The position numbers and the translations under genes were made by a program. A DNA stretch of 64,000 bases from Escherichia phage JLBYU50. The notes below the pieces were generated by a model. The model saw nothing but the letters and a program-made list of their open reading frames with translations. It had not been told where the DNA came from and made no database searches. Each line of letters opens with the position of its first letter. Within the stretch, counting starts at the first letter, position 1. The stretch lies in sequence record OK272470.1. The stretch is one strand, 5' to 3'. Positions 29,287-56,111 of the stretch are shown here, piece after piece.

Positions 29287-30232
29287 AGTGCAAAAACAGT
29301 TGAAGATGCTCTTCTCCTGACTTATGGTCTACAGCTACAACATAACGATTACCGCTAAACAAACCTTGTGCTGTCATACCGTCAATATCGGTATCTGCCG
29401 AAACATCTCCTGTACGATCTACACCGTTAACTTTCAGGAGTTTAACTTCTTTTGCAGCATAGCGGTGTTCAGTAATACTGATACCCATTAATGCAAGTGC
29501 ATCAGAGAATTTGTCATTAGGGTAACGGTTAAGTTCTTCTACTAGTGACTGAACAATATCAAAGTTCAAGTCCACGGAAAGATTATAAAGCGTTTCAAAA
29601 TCTGGTAAAAAGGCTTTGTTCTCCAGATTTTTAGCCAGATAGTCATCCATAGTAGCTTTAGGTAGTTTCTTATAGCTAAAGCTGTAGAAAATACGGCTAG
29701 GACGATTACGCAAAAATTCTGATACATAACCATCATTTTTAGTCAATACAAACAGCTTGTCATAGCCACCAACACCATCCAGCAGGGTAAGCAAACCATC
29801 CTGTGCATCTTTTTCAGCATACAGTTTATCAAATTCATCGATCATAATCATCACAGGTTGTGTGATTTTAGACATAAAATTGATAAAGCCTTCACCATTA
29901 AAAGCACTACCGATAGAAATAGTAGGAATACCCATTTCACGAAGAGCAGAAGATAGCATTTTAGCTTGCAAAGTTTTACCGCTACCCTTCGTACCCTCAA
30001 GGAGAACACCTGTGTTTTTACCTTTGCGGCTAAGGAACGTCTTGATAATACGTTCTGATTTATCATCAGTATCACCGTATGTTACTGAAGGGACTTCCAT
30101 ATCGTTTTTAGGATACAGGAAGAACTCACCACTTTGAGTAACACCTACACCAAAAGTTCCTGCTGGAATTTCTTCAATATCTGTACCAGACTTCTGACGC
30201 AGGAAGATTTGATTGCCGAATACTGTAAACAT
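29279..30232 (-). CDS. AAA-family ATPase (paralog A)
   Basis: 317 aa. Walker A GTKGSGKT, Walker B MIMIDEFDK, classical-AAA second region LLTLLDG and NRPSR. About 45% identical by eye to 44210-45337. Confidence 0.7.
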   Translation of the reverse strand: MFTVFGNQIFLRQKSGTDIEEIPAGTFGVGVTQSGEFFLYPKNDMEVPSVTYGDTDDKSERIIKTFLSRKGKNTGVLLEGTKGSGKTLQAKMLSSALREMGIPTISIGSAFNGEGFINFMSKITQPVMIMIDEFDKLYAEKDAQDGLLTLLDGVGGYDKLFVLTKNDGYVSEFLRNRPSRIFYSFSYKKLPKATMDDYLAKNLENKAFLPDFETLYNLSVDLNFDIVQSLVEELNRYPNDKFSDALALMGISITEHRYAAKEVKLLKVNGVDRTGDVSADTDIDGMTAQGLFSGNRYVVAVDHKSGEEHLQLFLHYG

Positions 30233-44209: not shown

Positions 44210-45337
44210 ATGAAATACACGATTTATGGTGATATTGTAAGTGTAAATAAAGATATGGGCGTGGAATCTAACTATCTTCCACCTGGATTCTATACTGTTA
44301 GTCGTGATCCCCTTGGCAATTATTTTTTAAGCCGTGGTAATCTGACAGGTGTACCGGATGTTTTGTATGGTGAAACAGAAAAACGAGCAAATCACGTTAT
44401 CCGTACATTCCATCGCCGGAGTGCACAAGGTAAAAACACAGGCTTGCTTCTGACAGGAACTAAGGGCAGTGGTAAAACTATGTTAGCCAAACTCATTAGT
44501 CGTGACCTTGTAGAAGAAGGTATTCCAACTATTATGGTTACTCAAGCCTACAGTGATGCTAATTTCATTGAACTTATTAGCAAGATCACCGACAAAGCAG
44601 TGATTATTTTTGACGAGTTTGATAAAGTGTATGAGAAGAAACAAGATCAAGAAGCACTTCTCACTTTGTTAGATGGTACTGGCAGTGGTAATAAACTGTT
44701 TATTCTGACTAAAAACAGTGGTTTTATTTCTGAATTCTTTTTAAATCGTCCTAGTCGTGTGTTTTATAATTTTAATTATGATAAAATCTCACTAGAAACT
44801 ATGATTGACTATTTAGATAAAAACCTAGATAACAAAGCACACTTTGATAATTTCCAAAGACTTTGGGATGTAAGTTTAGAGTTGTCCTTTGATGTGATCC
44901 AAGGTATAGTAGAAGAACTTAATTTCTACCCTGATTTATCCTTTAAAGAATGCATCTCTATGATGGGCGTTTCTTTAGGTGGTGGTAATAAATGGGATAT
45001 CAGCAGTGTTGTTATTAATGGGAAACTTCAGAAAGTTAGCTGGGTATCTAGTTGGCATAACTTTACACCTGCAATCTTTTTAGGTGGCTCGTGCACACTA
45101 GACGTGTACTTGTCATCTCCAAGTGATGCAGACTCTAAAGAAGCCCTTGCTAATAGCTCTTACGTGGTTTTTGATGATGAAGGAGATGCTCGAATTCCAT
45201 TGAATGCGACAAAAATGAAAGCAGATCTTATTACAGGCGGTAAAATCGTTGTGTTTAGTGATGATCCAGAAGATTCTTTCCGTATTGTTCTGGAGCCAAC
45301 TATCACCAATGGTGCAACTTTGGCAAGTGTGTTTTAA
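44210..45337 (+). CDS. AAA-family ATPase (paralog B)
   Basis: 375 aa. Walker A GTKGSGKT, Walker B IIFDEFDK, LLTLLDG, NRPSR; colinear with the - strand paralog at 29279-30232. Terminator at 45353-45378. Confidence 0.7.
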   Translation: MKYTIYGDIVSVNKDMGVESNYLPPGFYTVSRDPLGNYFLSRGNLTGVPDVLYGETEKRANHVIRTFHRRSAQGKNTGLLLTGTKGSGKTMLAKLISRDLVEEGIPTIMVTQAYSDANFIELISKITDKAVIIFDEFDKVYEKKQDQEALLTLLDGTGSGNKLFILTKNSGFISEFFLNRPSRVFYNFNYDKISLETMIDYLDKNLDNKAHFDNFQRLWDVSLELSFDVIQGIVEELNFYPDLSFKECISMMGVSLGGGNKWDISSVVINGKLQKVSWVSSWHNFTPAIFLGGSCTLDVYLSSPSDADSKEALANSSYVVFDDEGDARIPLNATKMKADLITGGKIVVFSDDPEDSFRIVLEPTITNGATLASVF

Positions 45338-45411: not shown

Positions 45412-46404
45412 ATGGGAACACCAAAATCATGGGAACAATATAAAGAAGAATTAACACCTCTTGCTAAAAATCGCAATATTCAAATCCTGGGTTATGTTGG
45501 TGAATGGAAAGGGAATAAAACAAAACTTGATTTGTTGTGTCATTGTGGGTATAGATGGCAAAGTACAGCTATTACGGACTTTAAACGTGGTGGTGGTTGC
45601 CCCAGTTGTAATTTAGATAGCTTACGCAAACGTATAATCATCCCTGACGATCAACACATACAAGATTTCATGAATACTGGCGCTTTCCAACCAGGAACCA
45701 TCTTCATCAATACAGGGGAACGTACTGGAAATAGTGACAGTATTTGGTGTATAAAATGTCCTATTTGCTCATACGACGAATATGTACAAGCTGGAGTATG
45801 TGATGGTAAGTTTTATTCTACAAAGAGTAGTCTTAAAAACGGGAGTCTCGCTTGTCGTTGTTCTACACGTTATGTGTTTAGCGATCAGCAGTTAACATAC
45901 CGCATGAGAAAGGAGTTGCAGAAAAAAGATTTGATTTTTATTGAATGGGTAGGCAAACCTTCTGTAAGATTAGGTAAGTTTAAATATCTTTGTCTTGTAC
46001 ATGGGGAGCAGATAGGGAGTGCTAGTAACTTATTAAGCCACGGTCGAGGTTGTCCTATGTGTGCTGGTCATAGTCAGCAGCAGTTATATATTAATATTGT
46101 TAAGGATGATAATATTATAGTTGCTCTTAAGTTTGGTATAGCTAAAGATAGTGATAGGCGATTAAACATTCAAAATAGCCGTAATCTGTTTTTTATGGAA
46201 CGTATTTGTTTATATGATTTTAGCACAGTGAAACAGTGTAAGGCTGCTGAAAGAGCTATAAAGAAAAAATTAAAAACTGGTATTTTAACAGCAAGAGAGT
46301 TGAAAGACGGTCATACAGAAACAGTAAGTGTTTCTGATTTGGAAAATCTTCAAAAAATTATTACACAATATGGTGGCAAATTAGTATATAGTAAGGAGGT
46401 GTAA
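45412..46404 (+). CDS. Zn-ribbon repeat protein with C-terminal T5orf172/GIY-YIG-like domain
   Basis: 330 aa. Three Cys clusters (CHCGYRW...CPSC; CIKCPIC; GRGCPMC). C-terminal FGIAKDSDRRLNIQNSRNL resembles the T5orf172 motif (IGRT.N...RL...). Tentative. Confidence 0.45.
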   Translation: MGTPKSWEQYKEELTPLAKNRNIQILGYVGEWKGNKTKLDLLCHCGYRWQSTAITDFKRGGGCPSCNLDSLRKRIIIPDDQHIQDFMNTGAFQPGTIFINTGERTGNSDSIWCIKCPICSYDEYVQAGVCDGKFYSTKSSLKNGSLACRCSTRYVFSDQQLTYRMRKELQKKDLIFIEWVGKPSVRLGKFKYLCLVHGEQIGSASNLLSHGRGCPMCAGHSQQQLYINIVKDDNIIVALKFGIAKDSDRRLNIQNSRNLFFMERICLYDFSTVKQCKAAERAIKKKLKTGILTARELKDGHTETVSVSDLENLQKIITQYGGKLVYSKEV

Positions 46405-46956
46405 ATGCGGATTACTGATAAGTATGTGTTCTTCTTTTCAGCAAAAGATGAATTTAGCAACTGGTATCTATCATCTTTTATTGAACCTTTAGCTCCCAAG
46501 TATAATAATTCTATTACAAGTTCTGTTGAATTTACTTGTGTGGAACAATATATGATGTGGAGAAAAGCATGTTTATTTTATGATTACAACATTGCATCTT
46601 CTATTTTAACCGGAGATCTAAGATATACAGGAGAAAAAGAACAAGCATATTATAAGCGACTAGGCAGATTAGTTAAAGATTATGATGAAGATACCTGGAC
46701 TTCTTTACGGGAGAAGATTGTCAAACGTGGTTTGTATCTTAAATACACACAAAATGAAGATCTCAAAAATAAACTTATAGCCTACGCAGATAAGGAGTTC
46801 GTAGAGGCAAGCCCTTATGATTCTATTTATGGTATCAAAATGGGGATGTGGGATCGGGACGTGGAAAATAAGGATTGTTGGAAAGGACAAAATCTTTTAG
46901 GAAAATGGCATACAGACCTTGCTGTTTATCTAAAAGCACAATCTGATATTTCCTGA
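46405..46956 (+). CDS. NADAR-family protein (YbiA-like)
   Basis: 183 aa. Blocks YVFFFSAKDEFSNWY, CVEQYMMWRKACLF, EASPYDSIYGI match NADAR/DUF1768 (F..FSNFY ... EQ.YM..KA ... EASP.D.IWGIG). Confidence 0.7.
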   Translation: MRITDKYVFFFSAKDEFSNWYLSSFIEPLAPKYNNSITSSVEFTCVEQYMMWRKACLFYDYNIASSILTGDLRYTGEKEQAYYKRLGRLVKDYDEDTWTSLREKIVKRGLYLKYTQNEDLKNKLIAYADKEFVEASPYDSIYGIKMGMWDRDVENKDCWKGQNLLGKWHTDLAVYLKAQSDIS

Positions 46957-47174
46957 TATTTTGAAAATTTTTATTTTTATAAAAAGGGGTGTGGGTTTCA
47001 TGTACGGAAATTCACCCTCTGCACAGTATATCCAGAGTAAGTAGTATTCTATACCCTGTTAATAAAGTATTTAATTTGTTTGTTGGACTATGGTATCTGA
47101 TCTTTAAAAGGCATACTATCTCTTAACTACTACTTATAACAGAACAGTAAAATCATTTTTATAAAAAGTACAAA

Positions 47175-47372
47175 ATTATTTAAAGTTTTTACAGATTTTT
47201 GGGTACAAATTTTGAAAATGAAAAGTTCAAGTTTGGTCAAAATTATTTAAAGTTTTTGTACGTATTTCTATTCAGATTTTGAAAATGAAAACTTCAATTT
47301 TTTAAAAATTCCCCAGTTTATTTAAAGTTTTTTTGCCTTTTTCCGTAGAAAAATCAAAAATGAAAAGTTCAA
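47175..47372. repeat. Three tandem ~65-bp direct repeats (iteron-like)
   Basis: Unit = ATTTAAAGTTTTT + ~20 nt + TTTGAAAATGAAAAGTTCAA, at 47175-47230, 47241-47297 and 47318-47372. Confidence 0.6.
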
Positions 47373-47395
47373 TTTCGTGTTTTTATAGGTGTGTT

Positions 47396-47455
47396 AATGA
47401 GAATCATTTTCGTTTGTAAATGAGAATCATTAGCAAATGAGAATTTTCTCATTTA
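47396..47455. promoter_or_regulatory. Three tandem Fur-box-like sites (AATGAGAATCATT)
   Basis: AATGAGAATCATT at 47396-47408 and 47419-47431, and palindromic AAATGAGAATTTTCTCATTT at 47436-47455. One mismatch from the GATAATCATT core of the enterobacterial Fur box. Confidence 0.4.
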
Positions 47456-47715
47456 GAGAATAACGCGCAGGGGTGGTGTTTGTCTCGCGCTCCCGTGTCC
47501 CCTCGCCATACAATAAGAATAGCATAACCAACAACAAAAGCAAGCGATTATTTTTATCTTTACATTTCTTTACAAATTTATTTTGGACGAGCTACCGGCG
47601 ATCAACCTTCCAACCAGTGCCCCCTGGTATGTTAGCCCCGCCTTTACGCCGTGGGGGTGGCGTTTCCTCTTCTGTATGTAAAACAGTATAAGCCCGATCC
47701 CTGGGCTTGTCAATA

Positions 47716-47982
47716 TTATTTTTTGTTTTCTTGCCAGGATAGGACACCTAACCAAAAATACATGTCGCCCCGCGCCCCTGGCGGGATCTTGCTTTCCCCG
47801 CCGCCACTGCAAGCCCATAGATAACCATTTACGAACGTATCAAAGTGATCTATCTCTTCCACCTTATGATCGCCCAGGTTGAGAACGGTTTCAACCTTTA
47901 AGCCCGTTGCGCTTGCTACCTGGTGCACCGTGCCGCCTTGCCAGCCCAATGAGTGCATGAGATGTAAAGGAGTATTTGTCAT
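47716..47982 (-). CDS. Hypothetical small protein in GC-rich segment (possible HTH regulator)
   Basis: 88 aa ORF, only candidate on the - strand in the early region. Segment GWQGGTVHQVASATGLKVETV is HTH-like. Could instead be non-coding. Confidence 0.25.
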   Translation of the reverse strand: MTNTPLHLMHSLGWQGGTVHQVASATGLKVETVLNLGDHKVEEIDHFDTFVNGYLWACSGGGESKIPPGARGDMYFWLGVLSWQENKK

Positions 47983-54461: not shown

Positions 54462-54477
54462 ATAACATTTCATACCA

Positions 54478-54504: not shown

Positions 54505-54707
54505 CCTAAATAAAGATGATAGCTTTTACCTATCAAAAACGTTCACCGAAAAAAGTGAATAGATCGCGGTATCGAGCTAATCAAGGAGCAGATGAACAAC
54601 CATACCATGAAGATCATAAGGCGCTTACAGCGTGTTTTAGACCGCTTATTTTTAATTTCTTCATGCAACTATCTGGCAAAAACAGCCTTTTTCTCATCTT
54701 TCCTCTT

Positions 54708-54780
54708 AAATGATAATCATTCTTATTTATAGCTGATTATTTATGCAATAAACTGCATAATGCAATAATGATAATCATTC
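54708..54780. promoter_or_regulatory. Two Fur-box-like sites
   Basis: AAATGATAATCATTC at 54708-54722 and AATAATGATAATCATTC at 54764-54780. Each contains the 13-nt core AATGATAATCATT of the GATAATGATAATCATTATC consensus. Confidence 0.45.
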
Positions 54781-55154
54781 TTAACTTATGACCATCTAAC
54801 CTATAAAATAATAAGTTATCTAACTAAATTAAAGCTAACTATTTCACCTTTATTTATAACTTACTGTTACTATCTCATTGATAACCTTATATTAAACAAC
54901 AATAACTAATATAAATCATTATTAAGCTAACTATAATCTATCTAACCTTTAAAACTATAACTATAATCTATCTAATTGTTGCACAAAGTAACTATTAAAT
55001 TGTTAGTAACATTACTAAATAATTAATATCCTATTTATTTATGATCTAATCTTTACCTTCCTATTTATCACCTAACTAATCATTTCATACAATAATTATA
55101 ACAAGAAATATAATTCGCAAGCGTATCATTAGCAGCCTATGCCGGACACATAGG

Positions 55155-55303: not shown

Positions 55304-55602
55304 AATGTTTGGAACATTGGCTATAATATAAGCTATCCAATAATAAACATAGTGGATAATGACACTGATGATCATAATGCGCCACCTTCCAGGGGGCGCT
55401 ATGTGAACACAAAAAATCTTTCTTGTCAAGAAAAATATTACCATTATTGCGCAAAATTATTTATATATGAATAGATGGTTTTTCATACTATTATTGTTAT
55501 TTGTCGGGCATAACTATCCCTATTTGTTGAGCCTACTTTCTTAAAAGCGCAATAAATCAGAATTATCTTGATTTTTAGTGAGTTTTATAGTATAGAAAAT
55601 AT

Positions 55603-55621
55603 GCAAATGATAATCATTATC
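55603..55621. promoter_or_regulatory. Near-consensus Fur box
   Basis: GCAAATGATAATCATTATC matches GATAATGATAATCATTATC at 17 of 19 positions. Confidence 0.5.
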
Positions 55622-55788
55622 AGCTATCTTCCACGGGTGGCACTATTTCACGCCAGATCATTTCATTTGGCAAGGTGTATATAGATGTTTAGACTTGCCA
55701 AGCCATTGATTTACTTAGAATTTATCTGTTTTGTTGTGAGTAGTACCTTTCTTGCTCAGAAAATAATCAAAAGTCTTATAAGTCATTG

Positions 55789-55820
55789 AATGATAATGCA
55801 AATGATAATTATTCTCATTG
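55789..55820. promoter_or_regulatory. Overlapping Fur-box-like repeats
   Basis: GAATGATAATGCAAATGATAATTATTCTCATTG: two AATGATAAT half-sites followed by TCTCATT, the partner of the 47.4 kb boxes. Confidence 0.4.
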
Positions 55821-56111
55821 ATATTTGAGGGGGACGGTCGGCAGAAATCGGGGGCGCTGAAAATCGCGTTAAGCACCTCTCGCAAGCGAGCAGTATTTTG
55901 CGGCAAGTTATTGATATTATTGACTTTACGCTTATGAAAAGGGGGCGTGTCGAAATAAATCGGGTATACCGGAAAATTTTTGTGGCATAGATATTTATTT
56001 GTCTATATTATGTACAAAGGGGTGTGTTAAAAATAATAGGTATATATAGAATAATTGATAGGGAAATCCTATACTAAATCCTTCATTAATGATGTTCCTA
56101 TGTTGCTGTTC

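Follow-up and report, generated by a model that had tools for sequence, protein, structure and literature searches.

Organization of the gene-free module

The stretch of DNA analysed here, referred to as the window, comprises 64,000 nucleotides of Escherichia phage JLBYU50 (OK272470.1). The element in question is a non-coding module around positions 47,175 to 47,455, in which three direct repeats are followed by a row of palindromes resembling binding sites for the host regulator Fur. Between 46400 and 48200, the sequence shares 94-98% identity with phi92/alia-type E. coli myoviruses (Stephanstirmvirinae, Justusliebigvirus; genomes of ~146 kb), some relatives being ~260 bp longer within this interval. 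Four records titled 'Campylobacter phage' (MG065639, MG065645, MG065656 and MG065689) are ~95% identical to this E. coli phage region, and their host label is probably wrong.

A preliminary description of the window had placed the repeats and sites in a 500-bp gene-free stretch downstream of a NADAR gene. The gene is indeed present (Table 1), but the gene-free stretch is longer than stated: the open reading frame (ORF) listing of the window contains no credible gene across 46957-47715 (~760 bp). In this non-coding module of ~0.75 kb, the repeats and Fur-like sites make up the left half. The right half, which contains two predicted leftward promoters (P1 and P2) and a near-invariant core, had been missed, and it alters how the repeats are read.

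Homologous loci were gathered from GenBank and IMG/VR, and 29 distinct loci from phages of E. coli, Klebsiella, Salmonella, Cronobacter, Proteus, Pectobacterium, Serratia and Erwinia were compared. Read on the + strand of the window, all share a common order: three repeats, one to five Fur-type palindromes, a lineage-variable GC-rich stretch, P2, two copies of TCTTTACA, the core and P1. The GC-rich right part (47456-47720) was found at 246 places in 245 phage records, i.e., as a single copy per record; these belong to phages of E. coli, Klebsiella, Salmonella, Cronobacter, Pectobacterium, Erwinia, Serratia, Proteus and Enterobacter in the subfamilies Stephanstirmvirinae and Vequintavirinae. 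A host origin of the GC-rich segment was rejected, as no similarity to it was detected in 5,426 E. coli genomes.

None of the records examined annotates a function at the places of the repeats and sites; that of alia labels both places 'repeat_region' only. Rfam gave no match in the whole window at gathering thresholds, and at a permissive E-value only sub-threshold noise from eukaryotic microRNA and small nucleolar RNA families appeared in the two non-coding regions. A search for tRNA and tmRNA genes likewise found none. No published description of Fur boxes or of the module in these phages was found in the open-access literature searched.

Table 1. Features of the module and of the second non-coding region (window coordinates; '.', no strand assigned)
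Feature	Position	Strand	Description
NADAR-domain gene	46405..46956	+	Pfam NADAR, E = 2.5e-36; phrog_1017; left edge of the non-coding module
Repeat unit 1	47176..47230	.	Box A 47176-47190; box B 47211-47230, 0 mismatches, with dyad TTGAA-N9-TTCAA
Repeat unit 2	47243..47297	.	Box A 47243-47257; box B 47278-47297, 1 mismatch
Repeat unit 3	47318..47372	.	Box A 47318-47332; box B 47353-47372, 3 mismatches; dyad degenerate
Fur-like site 1	47393..47411	.	GTTAATGAGAATCATTTTC; 16/19 to Fur consensus; 22.3 bits with phage-site matrix
Fur-like site 2	47416..47434	.	GTAAATGAGAATCATTAGC; 15/19 to Fur consensus; 23.6 bits with phage-site matrix
Fur-like site 3	47436..47455	.	Palindrome AAATGAGAATTTTCTCATTT = AAATGAGAA-TT-TTCTCATTT; counterpart of the fixed-position last site in relatives
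P2	47516..47543	-	Weak sigma-70-like, TTGCTT-N16-TATTCT; predicted start near 47509; 6.8 bits
Two TCTTTACA copies	47557..47574	.	10 bp apart; kept in nearly all relatives (alignments A1, A2)
Core, 95 nt	47583..47678	-	CCGGCGATCnACCTTCC ... GTTAGCCCCGCCTTTnCGCCGTGGGGTGGCG; near-invariant, directly downstream of P1
P1	47685..47713	-	Strong sigma-70, TTGACA-N17-TATACT; A-tract UP element; 11/12 consensus; predicted start near 47678
ORF88	47716..47982	-	Conserved small protein gene upstream of P1; 21 homologue clusters
Fur-like site	54706..54724	.	14/19; 29.9 bits
Fur-like site	54764..54782	.	16/19; 19.3 bits
Terminal-repeat counterpart	55530..55872	.	343-bp direct terminal repeat of phi92

Fur-type palindromes

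The three tandem sites reported in the preliminary description, the last of them palindromic, are all present. AATGAGAATCATT occurs exactly at 47396 and 47419, within the first two sites. In the third, the centre carries a T4/T5 polymorphism: phi92 and Eryne have one T more than the window, alia and VivaForever, in which the half-site spacing is off by 1 bp.

The label 'Fur-box-like' that these sites had been given is strongly supported by comparison with the E. coli Fur 19-mer consensus GATAATGATAATCATTATC. At a threshold of at least 15/19, the window contains six matches versus 0.6 expected from dinucleotide shuffles, and all six lie in the two non-coding regions (47.39-47.43 and 54.76-55.82 kb). 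When matches of at least 14/19 were counted across the 29 loci, the 180-bp interval of the module accounted for 86 and the remaining 191 kb for 22, an enrichment of ~144-fold. The 43 distinct phage sites yield the consensus AAATGAGAATCATTCTCATTT, whose core, TGAGAAT-C-ATTCTCA, differs from the Fur 7-1-7 arrangement (TGATAAT-n-ATTATCA) by one symmetric T-to-G change. The 7-1-7 inverted heptamer TGATAATnATTATCA is matched at 12-13 of 15 positions in the window and at 13-14 of 15 in relatives, site 3 being 1 nt shorter at its centre. Because the two half-sites are unmatched in many sites (TGATAAT-C-ATTCTCA), the constraint lies on sequence, as expected of recognition by a protein, which argues against an RNA hairpin.

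Modules carry one to five such palindromes, often 29 bp apart, and in some lineages there is a single site. The last site is held at -144 to -158 relative to the core anchor in the 29 loci, with one divergent locus at -199. Site number differs even among close relatives: phi92 and VivaForever have five and the window three, a 53-bp insertion adding two (compared at 1820-1880 of the VivaForever locus, L006, and 1797-1890 of the phi92 locus, L003).

A matrix built from the phage sites only was run over 24 kb of E. coli K-12 containing the enterobactin genes, where it matched the fepA-fes and fepB-entC intergenic regions and nothing else. Both are classical Fur-controlled promoters. A tblastn search with E. 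coli Fur found no Fur homologue in this phage group. Given the consensus matches, the enrichment, the outcome of the K-12 scan and the lack of a phage homologue, host Fur is the likeliest ligand of the palindromes, as judged from sequence. The AATGAGAATCATT-type palindromes, which lie between the repeat array and P1/P2, are most likely operators for host Fe2+-bound Fur. Among the three functions proposed earlier (replication origin, partition site or dense regulator-binding array), the regulator-binding array provides the best fit; nothing speaks for a partition site in a strictly virulent phage.

An unlikely alternative is that the sites bind a phage-encoded dimeric regulator of similar specificity and that their resemblance to Fur boxes is convergent or coincidental. 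Perfect palindromes of 21 bp are typical of phage repressor operators, and most phage sites carry G in place of the Fur-consensus T (frequency of 0.66). Moreover, several small transcription regulators are predicted in the phi92 record, and the conserved protein ORF88 is encoded inside the module. However, a motif derived from the phage sites recovered host Fur operator regions from K-12, T and G variants are freely mixed within the phage sites, and several sites match the host consensus at 16-17 of 19 positions. The motif is also unchanged across at least eight host genera, all Enterobacterales, despite diverged phage proteins, and ORF88 has no DNA-binding fold match.

Predicted leftward promoters, the core and ORF88

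P1 scores 11-17 bits in 12 of the 12 loci scored, its hexamers and spacing being kept while the spacer sequence varies. Its form agrees with the early promoter of Certrevirus, AAAA(N4)TGTTGAC(N17)TATAAT (PMC7344957). Strong promoter matches in the window otherwise run with gene orientation; the block of rightward genes contains only three strong matches (score of at least 12.5) in the opposite orientation, of which P1 is the strongest and the sole one to have an A-tract UP element. A promoter-like P2 site was found at the equivalent relative position in 12/12 loci scored, and it is much stronger in relatives than in the window (TTGCAA-N17-TATATT in Certrevirus and Mydovirus).

The Vequintavirinae and a divergent IMG/VR phage (L022) present a further arrangement, wherein a predicted rightward promoter has the last Fur box as its 18-nt spacer. 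This promoter, AAAAATTTTTG-TTGAAT-(Fur box)-(C/T)AGAAT, belongs to the early promoter class and is found in PVP-SE1, CR8, Kashira and L022. It faces P2, with predicted start sites ~35 bp apart. In the window, its -35 element has been lost and site 3 is one T shorter, so classical promoter occlusion is not evident here; the array in this phage may instead act on the leftward transcripts or architecturally.

Directly downstream of P1, the core remains 80-85% identical even in distant genera, with many invariant columns. When 185,579 species genomes of bacteria and archaea were scanned, its pattern was detected in only one, on a phage-looking 4-kb contig of a metagenome-assembled genome. The core matches no Rfam family. 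A structured RNA was considered and rejected: consensus folds are weak (-14.6 and -11.8 kcal/mol for the two strands), single-sequence folds are not more stable than shuffles (z = +0.25 and +0.67), and covariation is weak. Compensatory changes occur in three pairs, and in one helix 10 of 24 sequences have G-C in place of A-U. Although 96% of cells are paired, most columns are invariant. A coding function was also discarded, as the length of the hairpin varies by non-multiples of three and the sole ATG is ACG in half of the sequences.

ORF88, located upstream of P1, is also present in W70, Kashira and L022. A structural model of the protein (pLDDT 93) returned neither a structural neighbour nor a match to a DNA-binding fold.

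The triple repeat

As reported earlier, three direct copies are present; they lie within 47155-47375 and share 71-72% identity over 79 nt. The length of ~65 bp did not hold, as the start-to-start spacing is 67 and 75 bp. Each unit consists of two conserved boxes flanking a variable spacer, namely the 15-nt box A, TTATTTAAAGTTTTT, which is exact in all three units, and the 20-nt box B, TTTGAAAATGAAAAGTTCAA. The two boxes have no further match in the 64 kb (0.05 expected for box B). Since they occur nowhere else, the repeats are not general promoters, and their spacing does not fit sigma-70 promoters, which were ruled out as well. As terminators, the repeats would form weak, AU-rich stems, and this function was also set aside.

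The preliminary description had named absence or poor conservation of the repeats in relatives as an outcome that would speak against it; instead, three units are present in each lineage examined, with a spacing of 63-78 bp and a lineage-specific sequence. The spacer of unit 1, ACAGATTT, recurs in unit 1 of Klebsiella phage KP2025, and the flank of unit 3, AAATTCCCCA, recurs in unit 3 of the same phage, indicating that the individual units are orthologous between genera. The triplet is therefore old and fixed, rather than the product of a recent duplication. In Vequintavirinae, a unit consists of GGTnCTCGATCG, a dyad of a T-run and an A-run, CGTATTT and GAAAAAATTTTT, and is rich in GATC, which is absent from the units of the window. 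The pattern CTCGATC-N14-24-CGTAWT occurs in exactly three copies, in the module only, in 15 of 16 Vequintavirinae-type loci (flanks of up to 14 kb). G+C content is 20% in the repeats of the window and 34-50% in those of Vequintavirinae.

An improbable reading holds that the repeats are the domains of a leftward early non-coding RNA of ~0.5-0.7 kb, a sponge or decoy, and that the DNA repeats merely mirror RNA modules. P1 and P2 do point into the repeats, with no credible gene beyond them, and each unit contains a dyad whose sequence differs between units. In addition, phiTE, a relative, has a repetitive non-coding RNA (pseudo-ToxI) that it uses at a different locus (PMC3475682). However, the dyads are T-runs and A-runs, self-complementary by composition, and the hairpin of a unit (-2.8 kcal/mol) does not exceed shuffles in stability (z = 0.07). 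What is conserved within units is sequence boxes, as for protein sites, and the units, ~70% alike and anciently fixed, are unlike ToxI-type arrays.

Translation of the repeats was likewise rejected and merits next to no credence. Open frames span them in a few records, annotated as Mydo_054, PVP-SE1 gp202 and short coding sequences in Eryne and VivaForever. The window has no ORF of at least 40 amino acids over 47155-47375, unit spacings are mostly non-multiples of three (67/75, 74/67, 74/71), and the annotated frames vary in strand and extent from record to record and are absent in CR8, CB7, pEa56 and Kashira. Short ORFs called over both the repeats and the Fur sites in public records (L010 1972-2325, L008 2149-2433 and L002 4731-5316; Mydo_054, PVP-SE1 gp202 and Eryne CDS0108-0110) are probably spurious.

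Proposed mechanism

The reading preferred here, to which we give roughly even confidence on the basis of sequence comparison, is that host Fur, acting at its operators, gates early transcription through a unique array of cis-acting repeats. Early in infection, host RNA polymerase would fire leftward from P1 and P2, through the core and toward the repeats, beyond which there is no credible gene. Depending on the iron state of the cell, Fur at the operators would set the level of transcription crossing the module. In Vequintavirinae, it would do so by repressing the rightward early-type promoter (TTGAAT-N18-CAGAAT) that has the last Fur box as its spacer. That promoter is degenerate in this phage, so the main role of the multi-site array would be that of a roadblock or an architectural complex. 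The repeats themselves would be the cis-acting DNA target of leftward transcription, probably bound by a phage protein and possibly constituting a transcription-activated origin.

Several points weigh against this mechanism. Classical Fur repression acts at a promoter, and the window has no convincing promoter over the Fur-like sites; the half-site spacing of site 3 is non-canonical, and P2 is weak here. A terminator that would end leftward transcripts past the repeats is weakly predicted: the candidate at 46981-47017 (- strand; GGGTG...CACCC plus a T-run) folds at -7.7 kcal/mol, no better than shuffles (z = -0.66). The model does not account for the near-invariance of the core, and the phage-encoded dimeric regulator discussed above, though unlikely, would be an alternative ligand. 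No binding, transcript or replication data for this locus were found in the open literature.

The second non-coding region and the genome end

The preliminary description had linked the module to a second non-coding region through recurrence of the motif TCTCATT at 55810-55820. This link is upheld: the motif lies within a Fur-like site (55798-55820), and the second region contains both the terminal repeat and further Fur-like sites. The phi92 record annotates a 343-bp direct terminal repeat, window position 55530 aligns to nucleotide 1 of phi92, and six records begin exactly there, which places the terminal repeat at 55530-55872. Two strong Fur-like sites lie inside it, at 55603-55621 (17/19) and 55798-55820; each end of the virion DNA would thus bear Fur boxes. 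A weaker Fur-like site occurs at 55355.

Several smaller features accompany these sites. Between 55359 and 55832, a 37-nt unit consisting of a Fur-like site and a following ...CC.GGG(G) occurs three times, at distances of 242 and 195 bp; the last copy leads into a GC-rich stretch (55822-55960), an arrangement that resembles the one at 47436-47520. The least stable 250 bp of the window, 54801-55050 (81% A+T), is flanked by the Fur-like pair at 54.71/54.77 kb on one side and the terminal repeat on the other. Within it, TAACTATAATCTATCTAA occurs as an exact 18-bp direct repeat at 54928 and 54958. This stretch could provide an alternative unwinding element or belong to the packaging region.

Another reading holds that the Fur boxes are decoys. 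Each genome copy has ~8 sites, and as replication multiplies them they would titrate Fur, relieving the repression of host iron uptake so as to supply, for instance, the phage ribonucleotide reductase. The Fur titration assay (FURTA) works on this principle, with Fur boxes in multicopy. This part of the genome does contain ~8 Fur-like sites, two of them in the terminal repeat, and class I ribonucleotide reductase subunits are encoded in the phi92 record. However, the last site is fixed in position relative to the promoters and core, which argues for a local role, and some lineages have a single module site. Derepression late in a short lytic cycle may also come too late. A decoy function is consequently regarded as decidedly improbable.

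A T5-like injection-stop signal, marking where a terminal block of pre-early genes ends on its inner side, was considered as well. In phi92-type genomes, the module is ~8 kb away from the right terminal repeat, and its distance from the end of that repeat is ~8.4 kb. The interval consists of small rightward genes with strong sigma-70 promoters and a terminator at 54477. However, phiTE (locus L027) carries the module although its genome is circularly permuted (PMC3475682), so that function cannot depend on a fixed distance from the terminus. An injection-stop signal was therefore rejected, with very little probability left to it.

Is the module a replication origin?

The preliminary description had called the repeats iteron-like. 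Their occurrence at a single locus, their fixed copy number and their conservation in two subfamilies agree with this term; their units do not, being composites of 63-78 bp rather than iterons of 17-22 bp. Nevertheless, a transcription-activated replication origin is a tenable, if tentative, reading of the sequence: the repeats would be initiator-binding and unwinding DNA, opened or primed by the P1/P2 transcripts, with Fur as an accessory or gating host factor. This reading is compatible with Fur gating of early transcription, not exclusive of it.

Several observations are in line with an origin. A single-copy, fixed three-unit array has been kept across two subfamilies, strong predicted early promoters are aimed at it with no credible gene downstream, and 47059-47308 is the second least stable 250-bp stretch of the 64 kb. 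In most lineages, the leftward RNA would carry G-rich sequence directly after both promoters, the only feature that bears on a persistent RNA-DNA hybrid or primer at the site. The units of Vequintavirinae are rich in GATC. Furthermore, the origin of this phage group is undefined: skew analysis by the authors of the rV5 study revealed only changes tracking the direction of transcription and did not locate an origin (PMC3606486).

Other observations point away from an origin. The neighbouring genes encode an AAA ATPase, a CapR/T5orf172 endonuclease, the NADAR protein and ORF88, none of them Rep-like or an initiator. The upstream AAA ATPase has only weak similarity to DnaC-like proteins and clamp loaders, and it is absent from this position in Vequintavirinae, where the genes neighbouring the module differ. 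Conserved DnaA boxes (TTWTNCACA) were not found in the module; the window has none, and the sole recurrent one overlaps the P2 -10 element in some Vequintavirinae. Because the repeats reach 34-50% G+C in Vequintavirinae, easy unwinding is not a conserved property. The size of the units and the absence of GATC from those of the window also count against this reading.

Two of the neighbouring genes deserve further description. The AAA ATPase gene (44210-45337) has a paralogue with 42% identity on the opposite strand at 29474-30229, and its orthologue in a Klebsiella phage is annotated as 'replicative helicase'; its PHROG matches to DnaC-like loaders and clamp loaders are weak. The gene encoding CapR and T5orf172 (homing-endonuclease-like) domains (45412-46404) varies in length even between close relatives, with 993 bp in the window, 1194 bp in Eryne and 1398 bp in alia.

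Relation to known systems

Fur operators of Enterobacterales have been described as a 19-bp box, as an inverted repeat of heptamers (7-1-7) and as an array of hexamers. The phage sites resemble them in their match to the consensus (15-17/19), in being arrayed, and in a 7-1-7 core that is one symmetric change off; the aerobactin iucA operator, for example, contains GATAATGAGAATCATTATT. In Vequintavirinae, the last site lies in a sigma-70 promoter spacer, as in classical Fur-repressed genes, and the phage matrix finds the host fepA-fes and fepB-entC regions. Unlike host operators, however, these are candidate sites in a strictly virulent phage, they control no iron gene, they have no good promoter overlap in the window, and extra copies lie in the terminal repeat.

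A host Fur box in phage DNA has a precedent in the stx1 promoter of Shiga-toxin prophages, which is Fur-regulated through one box governing one toxin operon in a temperate phage. Both cases tie a phage-borne function to iron, whereas here an array is found in virulent phages of two subfamilies, in a non-coding module and at the genome ends. A second parallel is the face-to-face promoter switch of coliphage 186, pR/pL. The rightward Fur-box promoter of Vequintavirinae and P2 similarly converge, but neither arm leads to a gene for lysis or lysogeny, and the rightward promoter is degenerate in the window.

Transcription-activated origins are known from T4 (oriF and oriG), T7 (the primary origin), ColE1 (RNA II) and lambda (ori). 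The module shares with them predicted promoters directed into non-coding, repeat-bearing, single-copy DNA, which in the window would unwind easily. In contrast to these origins, it has no adjacent initiator gene, its units are far longer than lambda iterons, and its AT-richness is not conserved.

Phages of Alphaproteobacteria are reported to keep boxes for the host regulator CtrA (PMC9437464). There too, phage sites for a global regulator of the host would time the phage programme, whereas the regulator, the hosts and the site layout are different (PMC9437464). Finally, the pseudo-ToxI locus of phiTE, a phage from the same subfamily group, is likewise repetitive and non-coding, but its 36-nt, near-identical tandem units are unlike the 63-78-bp, ~70% alike units described here (PMC3475682). 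Identity of the repeats with this type III antitoxin-like array was rejected because the locus, unit length and likeness of units all differ (PMC3475682).

Implications

The analysis brings to light a near-invariant 95-nt element and a conserved small protein, and it flags spurious ORF calls over the repeats in public records. In addition, the module constitutes a concrete candidate for the replication origin of these phages. It is conceivable, if rather improbable, that both functions coincide in a Fur-gated, transcription-activated origin, such that a virulent phage would read the iron state of its host via Fur located between the early promoters and a three-unit origin, and also at the terminal repeats, and would adjust the timing or strength of replication accordingly. 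If true, this would amount to an iron checkpoint on lytic development, common to two subfamilies that include many phage-therapy candidates.

The module and its Fur-type array are common to the phi92, phAPEC8, rV5, PVP-SE1, CR3/CR8 and Mydovirus groups, many members of which are under development for therapy or biocontrol. If host Fur does bind these sites, strictly virulent enterobacterial phages would carry a conserved iron-sensing input to their early programme. Because infected tissues and plant hosts are iron-limited, the performance of such phages there could differ from that in rich medium.

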